Virus record (IMG/VR): IMGVR_UViG_3300036831_000148
Location: 32,001 to 96,000 of that record
Direction: 5' to 3' (one strand)
Source: a virus
DNA length: 64,000 nt
Made by a program: the position numbers and the translations under genes
In this document: positions 11,793 through 28,678 of the stretch, one piece after another
Position numbering within the stretch: position 1 is the first letter of the stretch
How the letters are laid out: every line of letters begins with the position of its first letter
The notes under the pieces: generated by a model
Databases searched by the model: none
What the model was told of the DNA's origin: nothing
Seen by the model: only the letters and a program-made list of their open reading frames with translations

Positions 11793-12100
11793 TGCCCGGC
11801 AATCGGCCCCTGGCCGGGGGGCTGGCCGGGCATGCCCGGCGGCGGGGTCGGGGCCAGGTGCGCGTAGGCGAGCCCGGAGATGGTGTCCCCCGGGCGGCAC
11901 ACCAGGGCTTGGCCGAGCTGCGGGTGGACGGCAGCGGCGCCCTTGGGCGCGGTCTTCGGCAGCATCGCCGGGTCAGGCGCGGCCGGGCCGGGCTGCCCTC
12001 CGGGCGGCGACACGCCCGCCGCGAGCTCGACCGCGCGCCCGGCGGCGATCTCCTCCACCAGGTCGCGGGCGAGCGCCATCATGGCGTCGTGCGCGCTCAC
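11789..12100 (-). CDS. hypothetical Pro-rich protein
   Basis: 103 aa, GTGA coupling to portal gene. Confidence 0.55.
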   Translation of the reverse strand: MSAHDAMMALARDLVEEIAAGRAVELAAGVSPPGGQPGPAAPDPAMLPKTAPKGAAAVHPQLGQALVCRPGDTISGLAYAHLAPTPPPGMPGQPPGQGPIAGQ

Positions 12101-13701
12101 GACCCGCCCAGCCCGTTCCCCTTGCCGCCCTGGCCGATGGCGCTGCCGCCCGCGGCCGACGTGCCGGTAGCCGAGGTCTGCGAGCCGACCGGCACCTTGA
12201 TGTGCACCACCGGCTGCTGCGGCGAGCCGCCCTTGCCTGCCTGGACCGGGTTCTGCGCCTGCTCCTGAGCCTGCTGAGCCTGCTGCCGCTGCTGGGTGAG
12301 CATCTGCTTCTGCTGCTTCTCGCGGTCGGCCTTGATCTTGTCGTAGTCAATGTCAAAGCCGAAGTCGCCCGCCAGCCGCTGCTCCAGTTCCAGCATGAAC
12401 TCGGGCGTGACGTTAGCCTGCTGTCCTGCTGTGGCGAGCTTATCGAAAGTATCCTGGATAGCCGCCTTGGCTTCCTCGGTAAGCGGGCCCCACTTGAACA
12501 GCGGGTACTTCCCGGAACCGAAGTTCCAGTCAACGAACCGCGGGAAGATGTGGTCGTTGATGACCTGCGCCATTTCCTCCAGGACGCCTTCCAGCATGAG
12601 GAAATAGGTGACATCGTCCTGCTTCCCGAAGTCGACTAGTGTGCTATCCCCCTGGCCCCCGCCCTGCTCGTTATCGAACCACTGAGCGAGAACGCTCTTT
12701 GACATCTGCGAATTGTGGTGGTTGATCAATCCCAGGAAGTCAAAGCGCGCCGCGGCCTCGTTGAGGGTCTGCACCGTCCAGTCGGCGGTGGGCAGCGCGA
12801 TGTACTGCGCGAGGCCCAACTGGGCGAGCGCCCGGATGAAGTTGTCCTTGTCCGCCTTCGGCGCATTCGGCACCATCGTGCCCACGCGCAGGCCCACGGC
12901 CGCCCTTTGCGCAGCCAGGTGGGCAATGTAGTACAGCTTTTCCTTCTTGTCGTAGTGGTAAAAAGCAGACTCGAACATGGAGACGCCGTAGAACGGGCGT
13001 TCGGCTTCCTCGTGCGCGTAGTACAGCCCGGTTTCTTTCGGGATCTTGACATCGATCGTCCGGCCCTGGAAGAAGGTCCGCTGCCGGAAGCCGTTCCACT
13101 CGCCCTGGCCGTCAACCAGGAAAGTCAGCGTCTCCGAGGGGCGCCAGTCGATCTTCCGCAGCGTCCACTTGCCCTTGTGCGGCCCGGTCTTCGGCTGCCA
13201 GTAGACCATCTCCCAGGCGCTGAACCCGTTGAAGAGGGCGAGCAGCATCTGCTTCACGAAACGGTCAAAGGAGTGGGTCATCCCGCCCTGCGCCCGCGGC
13301 GCGAACAGCAGGTCCTTGCAGAACTGGGCTTCCTCCACCCCGCCCACCACGCCGTCGGCGGGCACCACGTCCGCGTTCTTCATCGCGCTCAGCAGCGGCT
13401 TGGTGAGCAGCCGGTACAGCGCGCGGGCCTGGCCGTCGCGGCGCCGCATGGTGACCAGTTGCCGCACGGTCACCGGGTCGTCGCGGAAGATCTCCCACGA
13501 ATCGCGGTAGGGCGTGGAGAACGGGAGGAAGTACGGGACGCCGACCGCGAAGTTCTGCGCCTCCTCGGGCGGCTGCACCAGTTGCTGGTCGTCAGCGAGC
13601 TGGTAGCCCTCCTGGCCGTAGCCCTGGGAGGTGACGCCCATGCCGCCCGGGGGCTGCACCGTAGACGTGTACGAGCCCTGGCCGCCGCCTGGAGTGGTCA
13701 T
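12097..13701 (-). CDS. portal protein (Mu gp29/DUF935-like)
   Basis: 534 aa, ALFNGFSAWEMVY, PFYGVSMFESAF, INHHNSQMSKSVL motifs; CGATTA box 7 nt upstream. Confidence 0.8.
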   Translation of the reverse strand: MTTPGGGQGSYTSTVQPPGGMGVTSQGYGQEGYQLADDQQLVQPPEEAQNFAVGVPYFLPFSTPYRDSWEIFRDDPVTVRQLVTMRRRDGQARALYRLLTKPLLSAMKNADVVPADGVVGGVEEAQFCKDLLFAPRAQGGMTHSFDRFVKQMLLALFNGFSAWEMVYWQPKTGPHKGKWTLRKIDWRPSETLTFLVDGQGEWNGFRQRTFFQGRTIDVKIPKETGLYYAHEEAERPFYGVSMFESAFYHYDKKEKLYYIAHLAAQRAAVGLRVGTMVPNAPKADKDNFIRALAQLGLAQYIALPTADWTVQTLNEAAARFDFLGLINHHNSQMSKSVLAQWFDNEQGGGQGDSTLVDFGKQDDVTYFLMLEGVLEEMAQVINDHIFPRFVDWNFGSGKYPLFKWGPLTEEAKAAIQDTFDKLATAGQQANVTPEFMLELEQRLAGDFGFDIDYDKIKADREKQQKQMLTQQRQQAQQAQEQAQNPVQAGKGGSPQQPVVHIKVPVGSQTSATGTSAAGGSAIGQGGKGNGLGGS

Positions 13702-15725: not shown

Positions 15726-15845
15726 AACATTGGGGCAACTGTAGCATGATGTGGCGGGAGGCCGGTTCCGATCTCTACCCGCGAAGCCGAGTCTCGTACC
15801 CGGCCTCCCGCCTCCACACTCTCCGCAGCGCGAGCATCATGCAAG

Positions 15846-15917
15846 TGACCCGGGGAGGACTCGAACCTCCATCCTCCGCTTAGGAGACGGTAGCCCTATC
15901 CATTGGGCGACCGGGCC
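15846..15917 (-). tRNA. tRNA-Arg(CCT)
   Basis: cloverleaf, loop CTCCTAA, GGTTCGAGTCC. Confidence 0.85.
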
Positions 15918-15918
15918 G

Positions 15919-15995
15919 TGGAGGGAGAGCCGGGAGTCGAACCCGGATGTCACGTTTTGCAGACGTGCGCCTTGACGCGCCTCGGCCACACTCCC
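15919..15995 (-). tRNA. tRNA-Cys(GCA)
   Basis: loop CTGCAAA, U73, encoded CCA. Confidence 0.85.
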
Positions 15996-16085
15996 ATGGA
16001 CGGGGCTGCACCTGAGTGCGGCAGCCTGCCCCGCTTTACTGGCCCACCGCTACCCGCTGCCAGGTCGCGGCGGTGAACTCAGTCG

Positions 16086-16158
16086 TGCGCCCGAAGGGAC
16101 TCGAACCCCCGACACCCGGCTTCGGAAGCCGGCGCTCTGTCCACTGAGCTACGGGCAC
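16086..16158 (-). tRNA. tRNA-Arg(CCG)
   Basis: loop TTCCGAA. Confidence 0.9.
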
Positions 16159-16163
16159 CTGAG

Positions 16164-16246
16164 AGGCGCGTGCAGGATTCGAACCTGCGTAGGGCAGAGC
16201 CGGCTGCTTTACAGGCAGCTCCCGTTATCCGCTTGGGTAACGCGCC
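16164..16246 (-). tRNA. tRNA-Tyr(GTA)
   Basis: loop CTGTAAA, long variable arm. Confidence 0.85.
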
Positions 16247-16247
16247 G

Positions 16248-16322
16248 TGGGGTTGGTAACGAGAATCGAACTCGTATATCTGGAGCCACAGTCCAGCGCT
16301 CTGCCGTTGAGCTATACCGACC
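16248..16322 (-). tRNA. tRNA-His(GTG)
   Basis: loop CTGTGGC, G-1:C73, CCA. Confidence 0.85.
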
Positions 16323-16323
16323 G

Positions 16324-16397
16324 TGTCCAGTGAGGGATTCGAACCCCCGACGCCTGCCGTGTGGAGGCAGCGCTCTCCCGGGCTGAGCTAACCGGAC
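16324..16397 (-). tRNA. tRNA-Val(CAC)
   Basis: loop TCCACAC (C33). Confidence 0.85.
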
Positions 16398-16457
16398 ATG
16401 AAGGACGGCAGGGGGCTGAGCTCGAAGGCGGTGTCAGCCTGCTCACCCGTCGTCCAG

Positions 16458-16530
16458 TACACGCGAGAGGACTCGAACCTCCAACGCACGGCTCCGTAGG
16501 CCGCTGCTCTATCCGTTGAGCTACGCGTGC
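16458..16530 (-). tRNA. tRNA-Arg(ACG)
   Basis: loop CTACGGA. Confidence 0.9.
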
Positions 16531-16531
16531 T

Positions 16532-16606
16532 TGGTGGGCGTACCTGGTGCCGACCCAGGGACCTCGTCTGCGTCAGAGACGCGCTCTCCCGCTGAGCTAT
16601 ACGCCC
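16532..16606 (-). tRNA. tRNA-Val(GAC)
   Basis: loop CTGACGC, atypical T-loop GTCGGCA, CCA. Confidence 0.8.
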
Positions 16607-16614
16607 TCGTTCTG

Positions 16615-16642
16615 TTGACCAGCGTCAAGAGGCGGGTACCGT
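16615..16642 (+). promoter_or_regulatory. sigmaA-like promoter with TTGAC-N4-GTCAA palindrome
   Basis: TTGACC-16-TACCGT, GTG 7 nt downstream. Confidence 0.6.
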
Positions 16643-16649
16643 TAGTTAC

Positions 16650-16790
16650 GTGGCCTACCTCGTCGTCCTCGGCATCGGCATCTGGATTGGTGCCGTCGCC
16701 GGCCTCAAGTACGGTGCCCGCCGTGCCTTCACCCGGCTCGGCCGGGCCGAGCACGGCGAGCGCATGCGCCGCTCAGGGTTCGGCAGCTAG
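16650..16790 (+). CDS. small single-pass membrane peptide
   Basis: 46 aa MAYLVVLGIGIWIGAVAGLKYGARRAFTRLGRAEHGERMRRSGFGS, GC3-rich, leaderless. Confidence 0.65.
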   Translation: MAYLVVLGIGIWIGAVAGLKYGARRAFTRLGRAEHGERMRRSGFGS

Positions 16791-16863
16791 CGGTCCTGAC
16801 GGGATTTGAACCCGCGGCCCTCCGCTCGACAGGCGGACGCTCTACGCACTGAGCTACAAGACC
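16791..16863 (-). tRNA. tRNA-Asp(GTC)
   Basis: loop CTGTCGA, G73. Confidence 0.9.
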
Positions 16864-16875
16864 ATGTGTACTGCG

Positions 16876-16948
16876 CTCTCCGACCAGGACTCGAACCTGG
16901 AACCTGCTGATTAACGGTCAGTCGCGCTGCCGATTGCGCCACCGGAGA
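16876..16948 (-). tRNA. tRNA-Asn(GTT)
   Basis: loop CCGTTAA (C33), U1-A72, G73. Confidence 0.85.
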
Positions 16949-17146
16949 TCGTAAACGCCGGGGTACCGTGCCGTTCCCGGCTCCTGGTGATACTCCGCCC
17001 GCTGGACCCGGGCCAGGCTGCAGTTCCCGGCTGTATCCGGCAGGCCCAGGCCCGCCCGAGTAAGGCCCCCGGTTGTTTAGCCCTTATCCAGCAGGGCCAG
17101 CCACGTGTTCCCCGGGGCTTTCGCCGGCCGCCAGTGCCGGGCCTCG

Positions 17147-17222
17147 TAGCGGGGGCAGGATTTGAACCTGCGTATATGCCAGGCTATGAACCTGGTGAGC
17201 GACCAAACTGCTCGACCCCGCG
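17147..17222 (-). tRNA. tRNA-fMet-like (CAT)
   Basis: CGCGGGG start with C1 mismatch, loop TTCATAG. Confidence 0.8.
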
Positions 17223-17303
17223 CCGCGCGGGGCTTAACCGGACGTGACCCGGAAGCGCACCCGCTGCTTGCGCCACGGCACCAGGGTAAGTCCGGCGCCG
17301 TCG

Positions 17304-17377
17304 TAACCCCAACCGGATTCGAACCGGTGTCGCCCTGCTTGAAGGGCAGGCGTCCTGAGCCGCTAGACGATGGGGCC
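17304..17377 (-). tRNA. tRNA-Glu(TTC)
   Basis: loop CCTTCAA (C33). Confidence 0.85.
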
Positions 17378-17469
17378 GTGCGTCCTGCCGAGCGGATTTC
17401 AGCCAGCTCCCGGCGCGGACCTCAGAATCCTGCTTTGGCGTGGCCGTCTCCCGCGTAGCAGGCTCTGCG

Positions 17470-17543
17470 TGGTCCTGGCGGGATTCGAACCCGCGCTTTC
17501 CTGCTTGAGGGGCAGACGGCTTAGACCGCTAGCCGACAGGACC
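17470..17543 (-). tRNA. tRNA-Glu(CTC)
   Basis: loop CCCTCAA (C33). Confidence 0.85.
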
Positions 17544-17548
17544 ATGTG

Positions 17549-17621
17549 TGCGCCGGGGAGGTCCCGAACCCCCGCCGCGCCGCTTAGAAAACGGCCGTTC
17601 TATCCGCTGAACTACCGGCGC
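17549..17621 (-). tRNA. tRNA-Arg(TCT)
   Basis: loop TTTCTAA. Confidence 0.8.
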
Positions 17622-17625
17622 GCAG

Positions 17626-17698
17626 TGGGCCGCCCGGGACTTGAACCCGGAACACTCGGATTAAAGGTCCGCCGCTCTGCCATTTGCGCTAGCGGCCC
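17626..17698 (-). tRNA. tRNA-Lys(TTT)
   Basis: loop CCTTTAA (C33). Confidence 0.85.
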
Positions 17699-17699
17699 G

Positions 17700-17776
17700 T
17701 GGTAGCGGTAGCCGGGCTCGAACCGGCGGCCCTCCCATTATGAGTGGGACGCTCTGACCGACTGAGCTATACCGCC
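17700..17776 (-). tRNA. tRNA-Met or Ile2 (CAT)
   Basis: loop CTCATAA, CCA encoded. Confidence 0.85.
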
Positions 17777-17777
17777 G

Positions 17778-17852
17778 TAGGCTGCCGTGGAGTCGAACCA
17801 CGCTGCTAACTGCGTATCAGGCAGTCCCCGTCAACCGGCTGGGTCGCAGCCC
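17778..17852 (-). tRNA. tRNA-Ile(GAT)
   Basis: loop CTGATAC, atypical D-arm. Confidence 0.75.
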
Positions 17853-18033
17853 TCGCTTGAAACTCGACAGCAACAGTTACCGTGTGTACGCTGTCGGATG
17901 CGAGCAGTAAAAGACGCTGCTCGTAAAGGCAAGGCACCGTCACCCTCCAGGGGCGCGGCCCGTCAGGCCTTTGGCTGCATTACGGAGGCGGCGCTCGTCG
18001 GCCCACTACAGGCGCCGCCTCACGCCAGCCTCG

Positions 18034-18119
18034 CAGAGGGTTGAGGTGCCGACCCCCACGGCCCTCCCGGGCCGCCGCCTGTTTTCTAGACAGGATGTCC
18101 CGCCGGGGACGAACCCTCC
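18034..18119 (-). tRNA. tRNA-Ser(AGA), 8/4-type fold
   Basis: CCTGT-CTAGAAA-ACAGG, long V-arm, G73, acceptor GGAGGGTT/AACCCTCT. Confidence 0.7.
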
Positions 18120-18189
18120 AGGTATCCGCGGTCACCCTCGGGCAGGTGCTCGGCCAGCCCCGACACCGGCCAGGATCGCGGCATCCAGG

Positions 18190-18273
18190 CAGAGAGCGGA
18201 CGACTCGAACGCCACGGCTTGCACCGCGAGCCCGCTAGCAACGGGTCCTGGCCGCCTGGCCAGTTCACTCTCC
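18190..18273 (-). tRNA. tRNA-Ser(GCT), 8/4-type fold
   Basis: 8-bp acceptor GGAGAGTG/CGCTCTCT, 4-bp T stem, 6-bp D stem with 4-nt loop. Confidence 0.75.
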
Positions 18274-18345
18274 AGGTGCAGGACTTTTTGAAACCGGGCG
18301 CAACCCGGGGGCGTCCTGCGTGCCCTCGCCGCCTGCGCGGCCGAG

Positions 18346-18430
18346 TGGGCGGGGAGGGATTCGAACCCTCACGTCCCTCCCGGGACACACGGTCCTGAGC
18401 CGTGCGTGGCTGCCGTTACACCACTCGCCC
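18346..18430 (-). tRNA. tRNA-Leu(CAG)
   Basis: loop CTCAGGA, long V-arm. Confidence 0.9.
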
Positions 18431-18598
18431 ATGCTCCCCGGGCTGTTCTCCCTTGACTGGTCCGGGCCCGGGGGGCCGGCAGGGAGCCAGGTCGGCGCTC
18501 GCGCGCTGAGCTTCCCGGCCTCCTGCAGGAGGCCGGTCCGCCTGGAAGTGTCTGGGTGCTCCCCGGCTGCGCGTCCGCTAGCCGGCTTGCCCCCATAG

Positions 18599-18671
18599 AG
18601 CCGACGACGGGATTCGAACCCGCGGCCCTCACCTTGGCAAGGTGATGCGCTACCAACTGCGCCACGTCGAC
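18599..18671 (-). tRNA. tRNA-Gly(GCC)
   Basis: loop TTGCCAA, U73. Confidence 0.9.
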
Positions 18672-18710
18672 AAGCCGGACGGCCAGCCGCCGTCCGGGGT
18701 TCACCGGGCG

Positions 18711-18929
18711 TTAGCCGCCCTCCACAATCTCCCTGACCGAGGTCCGGGACCGGCCGGGCACCTGGATGCCGGACACCTCGCCGTCCGCCGCGGCGAACGT
18801 GAGGTGCACGGTCGTGCCCCTGAACTTCAGGGTGCACCCCACCGCCTCCGGGTGCACGCGGACCGTCAGGTCCACGTTGACGTCGCCCACTCCTACTGCG
18901 GCGGCGCCGCGGTTGCTCGTGCTGGCCAT
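18711..18929 (-). CDS. hypothetical protein
   Basis: 72 aa, TGATG coupling, SD GGAGG. Confidence 0.55.
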   Translation of the reverse strand: MASTSNRGAAAVGVGDVNVDLTVRVHPEAVGCTLKFRGTTVHLTFAAADGEVSGIQVPGRSRTSVREIVEGG

Positions 18930-19018
18930 CAGGTTGCCTCCTCCACCGTGACCGTGACCGACGCCTCAGCAGTGTTGCCTGCGGCGTCGGTCGCGGTGGC
19001 GGTAATGACCAGGTCCAC
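18929..19018 (-). CDS. 29-aa peptide duplicating part of the upstream Ig-like protein
   Basis: MDLVITATATDAAGNTAEASVTVTVEEAT; TAGTG and TGATG overlaps. Confidence 0.5.
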   Translation of the reverse strand: MDLVITATATDAAGNTAEASVTVTVEEAT

Positions 19019-19347
19019 TAGCTGGGCGGCGTCACGGTCGTGGTGAGGACCGCCGTGCCGGTGCCGTTGGACAGGGTGTTGGACTGCTCGGTGTAGGTGT
19101 CGCCGAAGGAGTCGCTCGCGGCGACGTCCATGGACTCGCTGGCCTGCTCCACCACGGTCACGTTCACCGAGGCCGCAGCCGTGTTGCCGTCGGCGTCGGT
19201 CGCGGTGGCGGAGATGACCAGGGAGACCGGGTTGGACGCGCTGTCGGCGTAGGCCGCCGTCAGGGTCAGCGTCTGGCCGGCCGTGTAGCTGTCAGCGTCA
19301 GTGGTCAGGGTCAGCGTCGGCGTGCCGGGGGCAGGGGGCGTGGTCAT
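19018..19347 (-). CDS. Ig-like beta-rich protein
   Basis: 109 aa T-rich, ISATATDADGNTAAASVNVTV; SD AGGAG and CGATTA box upstream. Confidence 0.7.
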   Translation of the reverse strand: MTTPPAPGTPTLTLTTDADSYTAGQTLTLTAAYADSASNPVSLVISATATDADGNTAAASVNVTVVEQASESMDVAASDSFGDTYTEQSNTLSNGTGTAVLTTTVTPPS

Positions 19348-19419
19348 GGGGTTCCTCTCCTGGAAAACCTGGGTCCCCACGCTAATCGCCACCAGCCCGC
19401 CGTGTCCGGCGAACGCGAG

Positions 19420-19493
19420 AGCCTCCACCCGGAGCCGAACCGGGGACCTCGCCCGTACCAAGGGCGTGCTCGTTCCAACTGAGCTATAGAGGC
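19420..19493 (-). tRNA. tRNA-Thr(GGT)
   Basis: loop TTGGTAC. Confidence 0.85.
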
Positions 19494-19535
19494 ATGCCAG
19501 GAACGCGCCTTCACGCGACAGGTGACTAATGAAGG

Positions 19536-19608
19536 CTCCGGGGGCCGGGCTCGAACCGGCGTGCCCTTGGTCCAAAGCCAAGGCGGGATGCCGTCAACCC
19601 ACCCCGGA
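19536..19608 (-). tRNA. tRNA-Gln(TTG)
   Basis: loop CTTTGGA, U1-A72, G73. Confidence 0.8.
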
Positions 19609-19613
19609 CCGAG

Positions 19614-19686
19614 CTGGGCGACAGGGACTTGAACCCTGACCCGCGGGACCATAACCCGCTGCTCTGCCGTTTTGAGCTAGCGCCCA
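19614..19686 (-). tRNA. tRNA with ATG (His) anticodon on a Gln-like body
   Basis: GCGGG-TTATGGT-CCCGC; TGGG acceptor with U1-A72, G73. Confidence 0.75.
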
Positions 19687-19689
19687 CTG

Positions 19690-19762
19690 AGCCGGTTACC
19701 GGACTCGAACCGGTCGCCCGCAGCTTACAAGGCTGCTGCTCTGCCAGGTGAGCTAAACCGGC
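19690..19762 (-). tRNA. tRNA-Thr(TGT)
   Basis: loop CTTGTAA. Confidence 0.9.
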
Positions 19763-19766
19763 AAGG

Positions 19767-19852
19767 TGTCCGGGGCGGGACTTGAACCCGCAGCGCCCGT
19801 AGCGGGCACCAGCACCTCAAGCTGGCGCGTCTGCCTATTCCGCCACCCGGAC
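19767..19852 (-). tRNA. tRNA-Leu(GAG)
   Basis: loop TTGAGGT, long V-arm. Confidence 0.9.
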
Positions 19853-19982
19853 AAAAGCGGGAGACCCGGTGACCGGACCCCGGCGCGCACCGGGGCGGCT
19901 GCCCTCGCTCCACCTGCGTGACCGCCTTGCGCGAGGCGGCTTCCGGTGGCGAGTCACCTGGGGATGCTGCACGTCTCCCTAG

Positions 19983-20050
19983 AGCCGCTGCCCGGTGCCG
20001 ACCCGGGTCGCCCGCCGTACGAAGGCGGGGCCGCAGCCGTGCGCGGCGGC
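19983..20050 (-). tRNA. compact tRNA-Thr(CGT)
   Basis: 68 nt, minimal D-arm, loop TTCGTAC, T-loop GTCGGCA. Confidence 0.65.
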
Positions 20051-20109
20051 AGGCCTCCGGGCGTTTGCCCCCGCGCAAGCGCTTACGGGGGTTATAGGCA
20101 CCGGAGGTT

Positions 20110-20187
20110 GCGGTTGCTCTGGGCCACTGAGCTACCGGACGCCCCTTCCAGGGAGACCGGGCGGGATTCGGACCCGCGACCTTCCGC
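20110..20187 (-). ncRNA. permuted anticodon-less tRNA-like module 1
   Basis: order: GCGG stem, V loop, T arm, looped acceptor, TAGCTC..GAGC D arm, CCGC. Confidence 0.65.
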
Positions 20188-20189
20188 TG

Positions 20190-20261
20190 CTGGAGTACCT
20201 GGACTCGAACCAAGACCGGCGGGTCCAGGGCCCGTCGCGCTGCCAATTACGCCATACTCCA
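20190..20261 (-). tRNA. tRNA-Gln(CTG)
   Basis: loop CCCTGGA (C33), U1-A72. Confidence 0.85.
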
Positions 20262-20360
20262 AGGCGGGAGGGCTCTTTGCTGACCCTCCGACTAACGGCC
20301 TTGCTCCCCGGCTCCCGGGGGACCGGACAGGGATTTGCAGGACGGCCCTGTCAGCCGTTG

Positions 20361-20436
20361 TAGGCGAGACGGGAATCGAACCCGCAAGAAGACGCGGGTT
20401 TTGAAGCCGCCGCATATGCCGTTCTGCTACTCGCCC
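20361..20436 (-). tRNA. tRNA-Leu(CAA) with short variable arm
   Basis: loop TTCAAAA, A73, 8-nt variable region. Confidence 0.7.
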
Positions 20437-20440
20437 GAAG

Positions 20441-20512
20441 TACCCCGCCAGGGACTCGAACCCTGACCTCACGGATTAAGAGTCCGCTGCTCTGCCATTG
20501 AGCTAACGAGGC
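20441..20512 (-). tRNA. tRNA-Lys(CTT)
   Basis: loop CTCTTAA. Confidence 0.9.
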
Positions 20513-20518
20513 TTGAAG

Positions 20519-20683
20519 CCCGGTGCCCAGCCCGCTCCCCCTGCCGTCCGGACTCGAACCGGGAGGTGCGCACCCTTGCTGGTAACCACTCGCCTGAGAC
20601 CGGGCCGCAGCCCCGCTGGCGGCCGCCAGCGGAGAGCAGGCCGGCCCCGTGCCAGCAGCAGAGGGGGCGGGCTGGGAACCGGG
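20519..20683 (-). ncRNA. long rod-like RNA carrying a tRNA T-arm
   Basis: ~25-bp terminal stem and CCGG-TTCGAGT-CCGG arm near 3' end. Confidence 0.5.
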
Positions 20684-20780
20684 AAGAACAACCCGGACCT
20701 GTTCCGGCCTCACGGCACTTATGCGAGGTGCCGTAGTCTTTTGGCCAGCCGGTTTCCGGGGGCGGTATGCATCCCGCCAG

Positions 20781-20853
20781 AGCCCCACCGGGGAATTGAA
20801 CCCCGCTAACCAGCTTGGAAGGCTGGCACATCGCCACTGAATGCTTGTAGGGC
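20781..20853 (-). tRNA. tRNA-Gly(TCC)
   Basis: loop CTTCCAA, U73. Confidence 0.85.
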
Positions 20854-21264
20854 AAGATCTACTTCCGGCCATAGCTCTCGAATGCGTGCGCGCCGGCGCG
20901 CACCAAGCCAGGGCCACACTTTCAAGGTCAGCCACTCACGGTGAGGCCGAGCCGCAACCTGCCAAATCCAGGCCGTCTTATAGCCACGAACGCTCTCCTC
21001 GCGGGTGATGCGGCCGACACCAGTCACGCTGAACAATCGCTCAACGATGTCCTCGTCCGTCATTCGAACAGCTACTACCCACCGCCCCTGTCGGTTCGGA
21101 CCACCCGTCCAGCAGCCCTCACCCTCCAAGATGCCTGCAATCCAGGCAACCTCGGGAGCAGTGACCGCCTCACGGGGGCTGCCGATGTCGGTGTAACGGC
21201 ACTTTCGGCACCGTTCCGCCGTATACCTCTTACGAGTGCCACAAGCACAAAGGTTGTACCCCAT
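20806..21264 (-). CDS. LAGLIDADG-family homing endonuclease with N-terminal Cys motif
   Basis: AWIAGILEGEGC...VRMTDEDIV.RL...TGVG; lower GC; overlaps tRNA-Gly. Confidence 0.75.
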   Translation of the reverse strand: MGYNLCACGTRKRYTAERCRKCRYTDIGSPREAVTAPEVAWIAGILEGEGCWTGGPNRQGRWVVAVRMTDEDIVERLFSVTGVGRITREESVRGYKTAWIWQVAARPHREWLTLKVWPWLGARRRARIRELWPEVDLALQAFSGDVPAFQAG

Positions 21265-21282
21265 ACCTGTGTTACGTGCAGG

Positions 21283-21355
21283 TGGTCACGGGGGCGCCCG
21301 AATCCCCGGCATGCTGCTTTTCAGGCAGCCGCTCTACCATCTGAGCTACGCGACC
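21283..21355 (-). tRNA. tRNA-Phe(GAA)
   Basis: loop CTGAAAA, imperfect T arm. Confidence 0.8.
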
Positions 21356-21475
21356 GTGGATGACAGCGCACCCAGCCCGCCCGGGGAACCCGGTACCCCG
21401 GCACGAACTCGGGACAGGCGTCCCTGCTTCGGCCGACCACCGGGTTATGCCGGCTCCTGCCTAGGCGCTGCCAAG

Positions 21476-21546
21476 TCGGGATACAGGGAGTCGAACCCCG
21501 GCTGACTGGCCCCAGACCAGGCGCGCTTCCGTTACGCAATATCCCG
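21476..21546 (-). tRNA. tRNA-Pro(TGG)
   Basis: C1-G72, A73, loop TCTGGGG (C33). Confidence 0.8.
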
Positions 21547-21548
21547 TC

Positions 21549-21615
21549 ACAGGCGTTCAGACCGCTGAACTACCAGGCCGAAGCCCTCGCCCGGAGTTGA
21601 ACCGGGATTTCCTGC
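21549..21615 (-). ncRNA. permuted anticodon-less tRNA-like module 2
   Basis: GCAGG-AAAT-CCCGG TTCAACT CCGGG-acceptor closed by cTTCGg-TA-GTTC AGCGGTCT GAAC-G-CCTGT. Confidence 0.75.
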
Positions 21616-21620
21616 TTGCG

Positions 21621-21696
21621 TCGGGCTGGGCGGATTCGAACCGCCGTCCTCCCGGCCCCCAGCCGGGCGCGCTGAGCCAAACTGCGCTACAGCCCG
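21621..21696 (-). tRNA. tRNA-Pro(GGG)
   Basis: loop CTGGGGG. Confidence 0.9.
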
Positions 21697-21818
21697 ATGT
21701 TTCGCGCGGGGTACCATCTCCCGCTCCCTGGGTCGCTAACCACTACCAGCCAGTGCCGTACGCTCACCAGCTGGCCCGGCCCGTCCGGCATGCGCCGTCA
21801 GGACCCCAGGCCCTTACG

Positions 21819-21893
21819 TCGGGGTGGGGAGATTCGAACTCCCGACCTCTACGTCCCGAACGTAGCGCGCTAGCCAAGCTGCGCCACACCCCG
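21819..21893 (-). tRNA. tRNA-Pro(CGG)
   Basis: loop TTCGGGA. Confidence 0.9.
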
Positions 21894-22005
21894 ATGGAGC
21901 CGCATGTTTTACCCAGTCCGGGCGGTTGGAGGCCCGCCGGCTCGTCAGGTTACCTTTTGCCCGGTGATCAACTCCGGAATAGGATGCCTTGCCTGGCATG
22001 CGACG

Positions 22006-22079
22006 TGGAGCTTGCGGGAATCGAACCCGCGGCCTCTGCATTGCGAGTGCAGCGCACTACCAAGCTGTGCTAAAGCCCC
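22006..22079 (-). tRNA. tRNA-Ala(CGC)
   Basis: G3:U70, loop CTCGCAA. Confidence 0.9.
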
Positions 22080-22083
22080 AGAT

Positions 22084-22219
22084 GCGGCGCTCTGCCATTG
22101 AGCTACCCGGATCAGTCAGCAGGCCGGCTGCCGGGGCGTTCCGCTACGCGTACTAGCCCGGCGCTCGGCGCCCGCTGCCTTCGCATCTCCGGGACGGGGG
22201 TCGAACCCGCGTCTCCCGC
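22084..22219 (-). ncRNA. permuted anticodon-less tRNA-like module 3 with extended acceptor hairpin
   Basis: T arm GCGGG TTCGACC CCCGT first, CCCGGA/TCCGGG stem enclosing ~75 nt, then TAGCTCAATGGCAGAGC. Confidence 0.7.
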
Positions 22220-22221
22220 CG

Positions 22222-22294
22222 TGGAGCCTAGGGGAGTCGAACCCCTGACCTTTTGCATGCCATGCAAACGCGCTACCTGCTGCGCCAAGGCCCC
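22222..22294 (-). tRNA. tRNA-Ala(GGC)
   Basis: G3:U70, loop ATGGCAT. Confidence 0.9.
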
Positions 22295-22483
22295 AGGGCG
22301 CGACAGCGGGACCGCGGTGTGAACACGGTCCCGCTGCCACGTCAGACCCCGCCGCCCGCCGAAGCGGGCAACGGGAGAACTCGCGGCGGGCTGGCAACCC
22401 GCCGCCTTACGATGCTCACGCTGTGGAGATGTCAAGGTTCGTTGACATTCACCCGCTCGGGCTCTCGCCGTCGCCGGTGGTCG

Positions 22484-22555
22484 CAAGGACGGGAGGGGTC
22501 GAACCTCCGCCACTGGTTTTGGAGACCAGCGCTCTGCCTGTTGAGCTACGTCCCT
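22484..22555 (-). tRNA. tRNA-Trp(CCA)
   Basis: loop CTCCAAA, G73; first tRNA of the array. Confidence 0.9.
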
Positions 22556-26672: not shown

Positions 26673-28235
26673 CTACGTGAAGCTGGTGGGCGTCCGGGCG
26701 GGGCCGTTCGGGTTGTCGGTCGCCAGCGGCCGGTAGGTGACCGGGCTGACGCCCTTGCCCCCGGCCTGCATCCGGGCGGCATCGTCCGCCGAGTGGGTCA
26801 GGTTCTGGCCCATCGCCAGCGCCTGGACGTGGTGGTGGATGTGCCGGGCCAGGTCGTGCGCGCCGGACTCGCGGGCGACCACGCAGGCGCGGAGCGCGGA
26901 CTGGGCTGCCCCGCCCGGGTTGGTGGCGAGCATCCGGCGGGCCGAGTCCAGGTACGCGCTCACCTTCGCCTTGTCCAGCGCGGGCAGCGCGTTCAGTTGC
27001 CGGCGCGCGTCCGGGTCGGCGATGTCCAGCAGGTTCTCCAGCGGCTGGATCAGCGGGGTACGCATCGACGTGTCGGAGGTGACCGGCTCGGACACGTCCT
27101 TCCCCGTCACCGCGGCGAGCGCCAGCACCCGGTCAAGAGCGGTCATGTCGTCCTCCTGCGTCATCCGGGCCATCTGGCTCGGGCCGTTGTACACGCCGTG
27201 GAAGTAGCGCTTGCGGATCCGGTCGGTGAGCGCGCCCAGCGCCTGCTCGGCCTTGCGCCAGGCCAGCACCTTGTGCTGGCCCTGAAGCATCGCCGTAGTC
27301 GCCGAGGACTGCCCGGCGGGCGGGATGCGGGTGAACACGTTGGCGGTGTAGGCCGAGGGCAGCATGTTTCCCTGGTCGGCCTTGTGCGCCGCGTACATGG
27401 CCGCCTGGGCGCTGCGCATCACCGCCAGCGCTTCCAGGGGGTTGTCCTTGCTGAGCTTGTAGGCGGCCTGCTCCAGGAACTTGCGGGCGGTCGCCGACAG
27501 GCTGGCGTCCGAGCACTCGGGCACCAGCGGGATGACGGCGCGCACCTCTGCCGCCGTCGGCAGCTTCGCCGCGGGCGGCAGCGGCGGGCTGGGGGCGATG
27601 GCCTGCACCGGGTTCTGGTGCAGCCCGTACTGGGAATACCGCCCTCCGGGTGGCGGCGGCAGAGTAAAGGGGCGCGCGCCCGGGGCCGTCGCCACCGCCA
27701 GCTCCACCGCCGAGGCGGCGGCGCGGTCCCCGTGGCGCGCATGCGCCTCCGCCCGCTCCTGCTCCCACTGCGCCACGTTCCGCGCGGCGGCGGCCCGCAC
27801 GTCCGGGTGGGTGCGCTTGCCCTTGCCGCTCTTGGTCTTCCAGCCGCCCGGGTTCACCCCGGCCGCCCACTTCTTGACGATGCCGACCGCCACCCCGTAG
27901 GCGGCGTGCTTGCCGTAGCGCGCCACCAGGTGCGGGTACAGGTGCTCGATGTAGGGCGGCAGGTGGTGGCCCTTCATGTGGAACAGGCCCGGCCCGCCCG
28001 GCGGCACCGTCGGCTTCACCACCGTGGAGGCTTCCGGCGTGCGCGGGGTGAACTTGACCAGCGCGCCGCCCTCGCTCAGCCCGCGCGGCTCTCCCGTTGC
28101 GGGCCTGCAGTGCAGGTCAGGGTGCTCCCGGCCACCCTTGTCCACGTGTCGGTACCACGGGCACTCGCGCAGCAGGTGATCGTGCGCCTCGCGTTCATCG
28201 TGCGCCGCCTCCAGGAGATCCAGGGCACCGGCCAT
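26673..28235 (-). CDS. hypothetical protein (internal SD+ATG near 27146)
   Basis: ATG 28235 via TGATG overlap; 520 aa. Confidence 0.6.
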   Translation of the reverse strand: MAGALDLLEAAHDEREAHDHLLRECPWYRHVDKGGREHPDLHCRPATGEPRGLSEGGALVKFTPRTPEASTVVKPTVPPGGPGLFHMKGHHLPPYIEHLYPHLVARYGKHAAYGVAVGIVKKWAAGVNPGGWKTKSGKGKRTHPDVRAAAARNVAQWEQERAEAHARHGDRAAASAVELAVATAPGARPFTLPPPPGGRYSQYGLHQNPVQAIAPSPPLPPAAKLPTAAEVRAVIPLVPECSDASLSATARKFLEQAAYKLSKDNPLEALAVMRSAQAAMYAAHKADQGNMLPSAYTANVFTRIPPAGQSSATTAMLQGQHKVLAWRKAEQALGALTDRIRKRYFHGVYNGPSQMARMTQEDDMTALDRVLALAAVTGKDVSEPVTSDTSMRTPLIQPLENLLDIADPDARRQLNALPALDKAKVSAYLDSARRMLATNPGGAAQSALRACVVARESGAHDLARHIHHHVQALAMGQNLTHSADDAARMQAGGKGVSPVTYRPLATDNPNGPARTPTSFT

Positions 28236-28678
28236 CAGGCACCTGCCAGCGCCTCGACGAACTTGTCCTGCAGCATCGCGCGCAGCCCCTTGTCGTCCAC
28301 CTCGCCGAGCACCCGCAGGAACACGTCGCGGACCTGCTCGGGGGTCAGCCCCCCGGTGGCCTGCGGCCGGCTCTTGGACCGCACGTCGTCCCAGGTACGG
28401 GCGATGGCCTCCCAGGCGAGCAGCGCGTCCTTCTCCTGGCCGGGGTGGGCGTAGCCGTCGTCGGTGCCGTAGCCGTGCCGGGAGGTCTGCTGGTGCTTGA
28501 AGTACCAGCCGAGCAGCACGCTGGTCCGCATGATCTGCGCGGCCGACATGTCCAGGCCCTCGCACTCGCGCCGGATCGTCGCGTAGAACTCCTCGTACCC
28601 GCGGCGCAGGTCGTCGTCGGTCACCGTCCCCGGGCAGGAGAACAGGCCGTCAATCTTGTCCCAGTCAGCGCTTGCCAC
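28235..28678 (-). CDS. hypothetical protein (possible terminase small subunit)
   Basis: 147 aa helical, first gene after a CGATTA box in the operon leading to terL. Confidence 0.5.
   Translation of the reverse strand: MASADWDKIDGLFSCPGTVTDDDLRRGYEEFYATIRRECEGLDMSAAQIMRTSVLLGWYFKHQQTSRHGYGTDDGYAHPGQEKDALLAWEAIARTWDDVRSKSRPQATGGLTPEQVRDVFLRVLGEVDDKGLRAMLQDKFVEALAGA

Follow-up and report, generated by a model that had tools for sequence, protein, structure and literature searches.

Is a tRNA gene that carries a histidine anticodon on an acceptor end of the glutamine type a device for misreading codons, an unusual decoder or an altered spare copy? The question is raised by one gene in the tRNA array of a virus represented by a metagenome-assembled contig of 146,268 bp, with 71% G+C and an estimated completeness of 97%. 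The stretch analyzed here, referred to as the window, is 64,000 nucleotides long and comprises bases 32001-96000 of this IMG/VR record. A preliminary description made from the letters alone had proposed that the gene, the candidate below, encodes either a glutamine-charged tRNA that mistranslates histidine codons or a nuclease-resistant decoder of glutamine codons.

An intact tRNA gene with the anticodon AUG

The order of genes in the window is a Mu-type portal gene (12097-13701, minus strand), a probable terminase gene, which gave no family match and no protein match, and the tRNA array. The features needed below are as follows; the A and B types of tRNA-Gln(UUG) are defined in the next section.

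15845..22555, minus strand: 37-gene tRNA array containing the candidate, between the putative terminase gene and a GntR-type gene
19614..19686, minus strand: the candidate, a B-type tRNA-Gln(UUG) derivative with anticodon AUG (from ARAGORN, Rfam, family models and homologues)
19650..19652, minus strand: anticodon of the candidate, A34 (19652), U35 (19651) and G36 (19650), read from the sequence
19536..19608, minus strand: resident A-type tRNA-Gln(UUG), starting 5 nt downstream of the candidate, slot-conserved in the closest relatives
19690..19762, minus strand: tRNA-Thr(UGU), ending 3 nt upstream of the candidate
20190..20261, minus strand: tRNA-Gln(CUG), the second ordinary Gln tRNA, with U1-A72, G73 and C33
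16248..16322, minus strand: tRNA-His(GUG), the ordinary His tRNA, which reads CAU too, with encoded G-1, C73 and CCA

ARAGORN called a tRNA-His(atg) at 19613-19686 on the minus strand, a label that comes from the anticodon alone, and 19614-19686 scored 48.4 bits (E 3e-8) against Rfam RF00005, whose gathering score is 29. The acceptor pairs read from the sequence are U1-A72, G2-C71, G3-C70, G4-C69, C5-G68 and G6-C67, and the C7.U66 mismatch that follows them is the sole helical defect. Next come U8 and A9, a D stem GCUC/GAGC closed by the D loop AAAACGGCA with A14, G18, G19 and A21, a perfect anticodon stem of 5 bp (GCGGG/CCCGC) with the loop U32 U33 A34 U35 G36 G37 U38, a variable region of 4 nt, and a T arm CAGGG/CCCUG with the T loop UUCAAGU. 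The discriminator is G73 and CCA is not encoded. All the residues of a canonical elongator tRNA (U8, A14, G18-G19, A21, U33, G53-T54-T55-C56, A58 and C61) are present, and the candidate is a real, intact tRNA gene. The base at -1 is G (window 19687) and cannot pair with G73. A register in which this G-1 serves as base 1 and C74 as the discriminator was rejected, as it gives a G.G end pair and a 3-nt connector to the D stem and leaves an extra unpaired U ahead of the acceptor strand.

Most of what the preliminary description had read from the gene was borne out: the perfect anticodon stem, the loop UU-AUG-GU, U1-A72 and G73, the difference from the window His tRNA at position 73 (G73 vs C73 of His(GUG)), and the place beside tRNA-Gln(UUG), at a gap of 5 nt. 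It had also likened the acceptor to those of the two Gln tRNAs in the window, which holds for U1-A72 and G73 but not for the UGGG start, since theirs are UCCG and UGGA.

Several other tRNAs of the array are unusual in their own right. The A-type tRNA-Gln(UUG) at 19536-19608 has a 3-bp D stem and a 6-bp anticodon stem and falls below the Rfam gathering score, and it is nevertheless kept in L006, L011, L048 and G001, four of the relatives introduced below. Five more ARAGORN calls of the array also lie below that score, namely Ile-GAT, both Ser, Thr-GGT and Gly-TCC. The tRNA-Gln(CUG) at 20190-20261 has C at the normally invariant position 33, as do its counterparts in several relatives (loop CCCUGAA or CCCUGGA). 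Nearly all His tRNAs of the phage family (window 16248-16322 and L006-L062) encode G-1 together with C73-CCA, and most non-His tRNAs of these arrays have no encoded CCA.

The closest homologues are glutamine tRNAs at the same array slot

Near and distant DNA searches brought up no close cultured phage, giving either no match or generic tRNA matches only. The nearest cultured relative is Microbacterium phage Magritte, with a portal that is 50% identical; its array of 30 tRNAs has no His tRNA and only one Gln(CUG), and is therefore uninformative. A search of genomes for prophage relatives that could indicate the host yielded two distant matches, both in metagenome bins of doubtful assignment. 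With the portal protein as the query, 51 related loci with 51-92% portal identity were obtained from IMG/VR, and the whole 152-kb genome of G001 (the L058 locus), which is among the closest relatives, was included. Arrays of the same gene order are held by 26 of the related loci, with 580 tRNA calls.

The top three homologues of the candidate are all full-length tRNA-Gln(UUG) genes of related uncultured phages at the same array slot, with the following identities when position 34 is excluded, compared with 69% for the best His(GUG) gene.

L021:1227-1299: B-type Gln(UUG), 82% identity
L162:1816-1891: B-type Gln(UUG), 81% identity
L051:4877-4949: B-type Gln(UUG), 79% identity

These genes share with the candidate the slot, the UGGG acceptor start, U1-A72, G73, the lack of CCA and the D arm. 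The pair 7:66 is non-Watson-Crick in the candidate as it is in the B-type genes, being a U.G wobble in L021 and a pyrimidine-pyrimidine mismatch in L162, whose first six acceptor pairs are the same as those of the candidate. The consistent difference lies at position 34, which is U in the B-type genes and A in the candidate; the loop of L021, UUUUGGU, differs from the candidate's UUAUGGU at this position only. Because the candidate and L021 differ by compensatory changes at 5:68 and 31:39, it can be concluded that the lineage evolved as a functional tRNA, under tRNA constraints.

Comparison of the arrays showed that two interchangeable Gln(UUG) genes occur in the family at the slot after Leu(GAG)/Thr(UGU). 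The A type has the acceptor UCCGGGG; the B type has the acceptor UGGGCG, the D arm TAGCTCA...GGCAGAGC and the loop UU-UUG-GU. The occupants of the slot are as follows.

Window: Thr(UGU), candidate (B-type body, AUG), A-type Gln(UUG), Thr(GGU)
L011 and G001 (92% portal identity): Thr(UGU), A-type Gln(UUG), Thr(GGU), directly abutting
L162: Thr(UGU), B-type Gln(UUG), Thr(GGU)
L006: A type, after Thr(UGU) and an unrelated insert
L048: A type, after Leu(GAG)
L021 and L051: B type, after Leu(GAG)

In the relatives the B type thus stands in place of the A type, whereas the candidate stands beside an A-type Gln(UUG). Since the window stacks both slot alleles, one of its two Gln(UUG)-derived genes is redundant for CAA. 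The insert in L006 (4867-4965) is a 99-nt non-tRNA sequence between Thr(UGU) and Gln(UUG) with long inverted ends, GGAGGCTGCATGCAAGG ... CCTTGCAGCCTCC, and from it the Gln(UUG) slot appears to be an insertion hot spot.

The acceptor end is that of glutamine and the core is generic

U1-A72 is found in every one of the 15 distinct Gln tRNAs of the phage family, together with G73 in 11 and A73 in 4. The 19 distinct family His tRNAs all have G1-C72, and they mostly carry C73 (18), G-1 (17) and an encoded CCA (16); the window His(GUG), at 16251-16322, has G-1, G1-C72, C73 and the encoded CCA. Against these two sets the candidate shows the Gln pattern at its acceptor end. We then built one covariance model from the Gln set and one from the His set as stand-ins for isotype models. 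The candidate scored 61.8 bits with the family Gln model, in which the two true Gln genes reached 74 and 81, and 48.4 bits with the family His model, no higher than unrelated Thr, Asp and Arg tRNAs reach (48.5-52.8) and far from the true His gene at 81.6. The isotype-model comparison that had been suggested as a check on the Gln-type reading therefore favors Gln, as far as these family models can stand for it.

The remainder of the molecule is less telling. The position-wise Gln/His log-odds of the candidate was +25 bits toward Gln when all Gln genes were in the training set and +4 bits, at the class border, without the B-type homologues, and the segment made up of its D and anticodon arms and variable region is very close to that of His(GUG) genes of other phages. 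Judged from sequence, positions 8 to 65 form a generic core that resembles His and Gln tRNAs about equally. Because the B-type core is itself generic, the Gln signal is confined to U1, A72, G73 and homology. The "Gln-type body" of the preliminary description accordingly stands for the acceptor end and for the ancestry (homologues, slot and models) and falls away for the core, and the Gln call leans heavily on the acceptor end and the B-type homologues.

The candidate can also be compared with the known bacterial identity elements. The Gln set consists of G73, U1-A72, G2-C71, G3-C70, G10, U34, U35, G36, A37 and U38, and the His set of G-1, C73 and the GUG anticodon (PMC9976931). All four acceptor-end elements of the Gln set (U1-A72, G2-C71, G3-C70 and G73) are present in the candidate, and so is G10 at the start of the D stem. 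In the anticodon loop the set is incomplete: U35, G36 and U38 are present, and A and G occupy positions 34 and 37, where U (or C) and A would be expected; G37 is, however, shared by the majority of bona fide Gln tRNAs in the phage family. GatCAB depends on U1-A72 (PMC9976931), and its substrate rule of U1-A72 without an extra D-loop nucleotide at 20a/20b (PMC9976931, PMC2811023) is followed by the candidate, with U1-A72 and only C20 between G19 and A21. Neither part of the His set is found, as a G-1/C73 pair is impossible and the anticodon is A34 U35 G36 instead of G34 U35 G36.

A true His isoacceptor specialized for CAU is, on these data, the least probable of the readings considered here. 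The His-box anticodon, the G at -1 and the arms and variable region that are close to His(GUG) of other phages would fit it. However, G73 does not pair with G-1, the family His tRNAs have G1-C72 without exception in place of U1-A72 and nearly always C73 and usually CCA, G34 is itself a His element (PMC9976931), and the His-model score is no better than that of unrelated tRNAs. Moreover, CAU is very rare in the phage and read by the GUG tRNA anyway, and neither a Thg1 nor a HisRS gene was found there.

The AUG anticodon is private to one genome

The only A-starting anticodon among the 580 tRNAs of the 26 related arrays is ACG, and AUG occurs in none of these arrays. In exact-pattern scans, the candidate anticodon arm, whether sought with AUG or with position 34 left free, was absent from other viral contigs, and neither anticodon-arm pattern was present in 241 million metagenome records; a pattern of the T arm plus acceptor end matched no other viral contig. 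A generic pattern (U33-AUG-G37, the T-loop motif and a CCAG 3' end) gave 0 matches in viral contigs, whereas the same pattern with UUG, run as a control, gave at least 119. In metagenome contigs the generic AUG pattern gave 53 matches, approximately the chance expectation, of which 4 pass the Rfam tRNA threshold. These four have the Gln-type acceptor end (U1-A72, G73).

L203:354-425: AUG tRNA in a metagenome contig
L247:1548-1619: AUG tRNA in a metagenome contig
L240:1829-1899: AUG tRNA in a metagenome contig
L236:1923-1990: AUG tRNA in a metagenome contig

The loop of L203 (70% GC) is exactly UUAUGGU. By sequence these four are no relatives of the candidate; they indicate that Gln-type AUG tRNAs arise sporadically. 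A separate observation is that L208, L216, L236 and L247 have a common 3' half from the anticodon stem on and differing 5' halves; the shared halves could be att-site remnants or a conserved class.

Conservation in related phages had been named as a check, and it did not turn out in favor of the gene: the AUG version has neither twin nor sister and is private to one genome. Because a private mutation was the very outcome that the preliminary description had set against itself, its functional proposals are left unsupported.

The array contains a second tRNA of this kind. Ser(AGA) at 18033-18119 (minus strand) is a non-canonical tRNA whose D arm, a 5-bp hairpin closed by a 4-nt loop, lacks G18-G19 and whose T loop is GUCGGCA; it lies below the Rfam threshold. 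Its homologues in L045, L021/L061 and L049 are 75-80% identical, have the anticodon CGA with C33 and are not called by ARAGORN. The change in Ser(AGA), the only UCN-box tRNA of the phage, is thus the second private change to A34 in the genome, and two such changes against none in 580 related tRNAs hint at something non-random. Outside the family, among the matches listed, A34 tRNAs other than ACG made up about 2% (16/669) of a broad sample of unrelated phages; a Ser tRNA with the anticodon ACU on a normal long-armed body was seen in the unrelated phage arrays L100, L120, L136, L156, L159, L161 and L180, also among the matches listed.

A single base that occurs in one record of a metagenome-assembled contig could be a sequencing or assembly error, the true gene being UUG and the phage possessing two tandem Gln(UUG) genes; in principle, the mixing of strains could also have placed the two slot alleles in tandem as an artefact. 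We regard such an error as unlikely, if worth keeping in mind. Consensus substitution errors are rare in short-read assemblies, and the second A34 change on the same contig would mean two errors both at wobble positions, which is improbable. The junctions on both sides of the candidate are clean and the spacing is tRNA-like.

CAU codons are rare and show no sign of a dedicated decoder

A gene call based on GC3 gave 152 genes that cover 76% of the genome, with the following codon counts.

CAT: 35
CAC: 695
CAA: 49
CAG: 1193

CAT thus accounts for 35 of 34,863 codons (0.1%) and 4.8% of the His codons, and its occurrences are distributed among 23 genes. Orthologues could be aligned at 15 of these codons; they have His at 9, some other residue at 6 and Gln at 0, so recoding, with CAT where orthologues have Gln, was rejected. 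A CAT-rich gene served by the candidate was rejected as well, the maximum being 4 CAT in a 630-codon gene, as was a connection with the leader ORF that precedes the array and uses CAC and CAG and no CAT. The 630-codon gene (26673-28565, minus strand, no Pfam match) holds 4 of the 35 CAT and 5 of the 49 CAA, clustered in its first 100 codons. G001, a relative without the AUG tRNA, keeps the three N-terminal CAT of this gene (codons 6, 12 and 54 of its orthologue), and the fourth is mostly CAC in relatives. No gene for a protein with the cytidine/adenosine deaminase fold, for GluRS/GlnRS, for HisRS or for Thg1 was found in the phage.

These observations bear on the idea that the candidate is a purposeful mistranslator in the manner of the tRNAProX group of actinobacteria, which would place Gln (or Glu) at CAU, and perhaps at CAC, and thereby diversify or damage proteins. 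Several points speak for it: the cloverleaf is intact, a full Gln-type acceptor end is joined to a His-box anticodon, ANN-anticodon mistranslators are known in nature from Streptomyces and Kitasatospora (PMC10404621), and a few intact Gln-type AUG tRNAs occur in metagenome contigs, one of them (L203) with the identical loop. We nevertheless consider it quite unlikely. A dedicated mistranslator would be conserved and linked to a synthetase; the candidate is absent from the 26 related arrays and without a twin in viral or metagenome contigs, and the phage has no partner synthetase gene (GluRS/GlnRS or HisRS). In addition, CAU is 0.1% of codons and its sites are ordinary His positions, and A34 removes an identity element of the Gln/Glu enzymes (PMC9976931). 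With AUG private and the CAU sites aligned with His and never with Gln, the His-to-Gln mistranslation put forward in the preliminary description finds no backing. A variant, in which the candidate would be a deliberate low-level His-to-Gln mistranslator at CAU with an unmodified AUG or would, together with Ser(AGA), exploit an unusual handling of A34 by the host, we hold to be distinctly unlikely.

The second proposal, a Gln decoder or decoy whose wobble change protects it from a host anticodon nuclease or soaks that nuclease up, fares no better and is in our view very unlikely. Altered loops have been suggested to let phage tRNAs evade anticodon nucleases (PMC10264068), and unusual loops occur in several members of the present array, Gln(CUG) with its C33 among them. 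However, the escape changes described leave the anticodon intact (PMC10264068), and a decoder with A34 would read CAA and CAG poorly because unmodified A34 pairs mainly with U (PMC11066159). The phage also keeps two ordinary Gln tRNAs, and the change, being private, is not conserved.

A probable spare glutamine tRNA with a private change at position 34

The reading that we favor, and hold to be fairly probable, takes the candidate for a Gln(UUG) copy that was redundant and underwent a change from U34 to A private to this genome. The tRNA would probably be charged poorly and have an almost neutral effect. It would most likely be a recent private variant and not a conserved device. As a type of gene, it would be counted among the sporadic A34 variants, or anticodon-shifted paralogues, of tRNA genes.

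Under this reading, recombination between array variants presumably stacked the A-type and B-type Gln(UUG) genes in tandem. The A-type copy would have kept the UUG function and rendered the B-type copy redundant, and the U34-to-A substitution could persist because the B-type gene was spare. As a point against a purely accidental variant, the candidate shows no decay apart from position 34 and has all its tertiary invariants intact, so it is no old pseudogene.

What the RNA does can be worked out in part from its sequence and its neighbors, from which we infer its charging, modification and expression. As the gene begins 3 nt after Thr(UGU) and ends 5 nt before Gln(UUG), co-transcription and joint processing with the neighbors are expected, and the RNA would fold normally. 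Because G-1 is unable to pair with G73, RNase P would be expected to cut at +1 and leave an RNA without the His mark, and HisRS, which needs G-1 paired with C73, would be unsuited to it. The acceptor end (U1-A72, G2-C71, G3-C70 and G73) would instead direct the RNA to the Gln route, either by GlnRS or by a non-discriminating GluRS followed by GatCAB. For the GluRS of B. subtilis, a Gram-positive, non-discriminating enzyme, modified U34 is the main element (PMC9976931). Since the Gln set has a pyrimidine at position 34 and GluRS relies chiefly on modified U34 (PMC9976931), charging of the candidate is probably poor.

A34 itself is probably unmodified, because the candidate loop, UUAUGGU, differs from the Arg(ACG) loop of the phage, CUACGGA, at positions 32, 35 and 38 and is in this respect not that of a TadA substrate, by a loop rule that comes from E. 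coli and may not be that of the host enzyme. In E. coli, deamination of an AUG anticodon required a loop resembling that of Arg(ACG), and no inosine was formed with any of the changes tested at 32, 37 or 38 (PMC5137457, PMC11066159). According to in vivo decoding data, unmodified A34 reads mainly U-ending codons and reads those ending in A or G weakly (PMC11066159). Any charged fraction would thus put a little Gln at CAU in competition with His-tRNA(GUG), and the net effect would be near neutral or slightly harmful.

If this reading is right, the window holds a snapshot of tRNA-array evolution, in which two interchangeable genes come to lie side by side by recombination and the one that is not needed can acquire another anticodon, as a first step of tRNA remoulding or of loss. 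For the biology of the phage the candidate carries little weight, as the codon within its reach hardly occurs and there is no indication that the change is being maintained; it would matter much more if it were shown to be charged and used. To our knowledge, no phage-encoded mistranslating tRNA has been demonstrated.

Comparison with known systems

Phage tRNAs thought to escape anticodon nucleases (PMC10264068) resemble the candidate in that they belong to a phage array that departs from host-like anticodon loops. They keep their anticodon and decoding, whereas in the candidate the anticodon itself is changed. The combination of an AUG anticodon and a non-His body has also been made by design, in a CAU-reassigning tRNA that reads CAU and, once A34 is deaminated to inosine, CAC. 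That tRNA was over-expressed with its own synthetase, and its inosine needed an Arg(ACG)-like loop, from which the candidate loop differs at 32 and 38.

The tRNAProX molecules of Streptomyces and Kitasatospora (tRNAProA, tRNAProN and tRNAProT; PMC10404621) likewise combine an A-starting anticodon with the identity of another amino acid, in a high-GC setting that, for the phage, is probably actinobacterial. They are conserved across species, have A33, A15:A48 and G21, and adjoin a dedicated ProRSx gene (PMC10404621); the candidate, in contrast, is a singleton with ordinary U33 and tertiary pairs and no partner enzyme. Should the candidate after all be a mistranslator, or exploit the handling of A34 by its host, it would represent the first case of a phage that carries a counterpart of the actinobacterial tRNAProX system.

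A further parallel is with the sporadic ANN tRNAs of bacteria, which include genes entered in GtRNAdb as His-tRNA(AUG) (Raval et al., bioRxiv 10.64898/2026.05.15.725136). As in the candidate, A34 occurs there outside Arg(ACG) and in a split box, the genes are scattered without clade-wide conservation, and a GNN isoacceptor accompanies them in every case. In bacteria, according to the survey and experiments, ANN tRNAs of two-fold boxes are sporadic, and U34A or C34A in these boxes is expected to mistranslate and to be selected against (bioRxiv 10.64898/2026.05.15.725136). The genes of that survey are labelled by their anticodon, whereas the candidate can be assigned by its acceptor end and ancestry to the neighboring amino acid, as U34A on a Gln tRNA, and is phage-borne. 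On the favored reading it provides a natural example of U34A in a split box, a change predicted to mistranslate and to be selected against.
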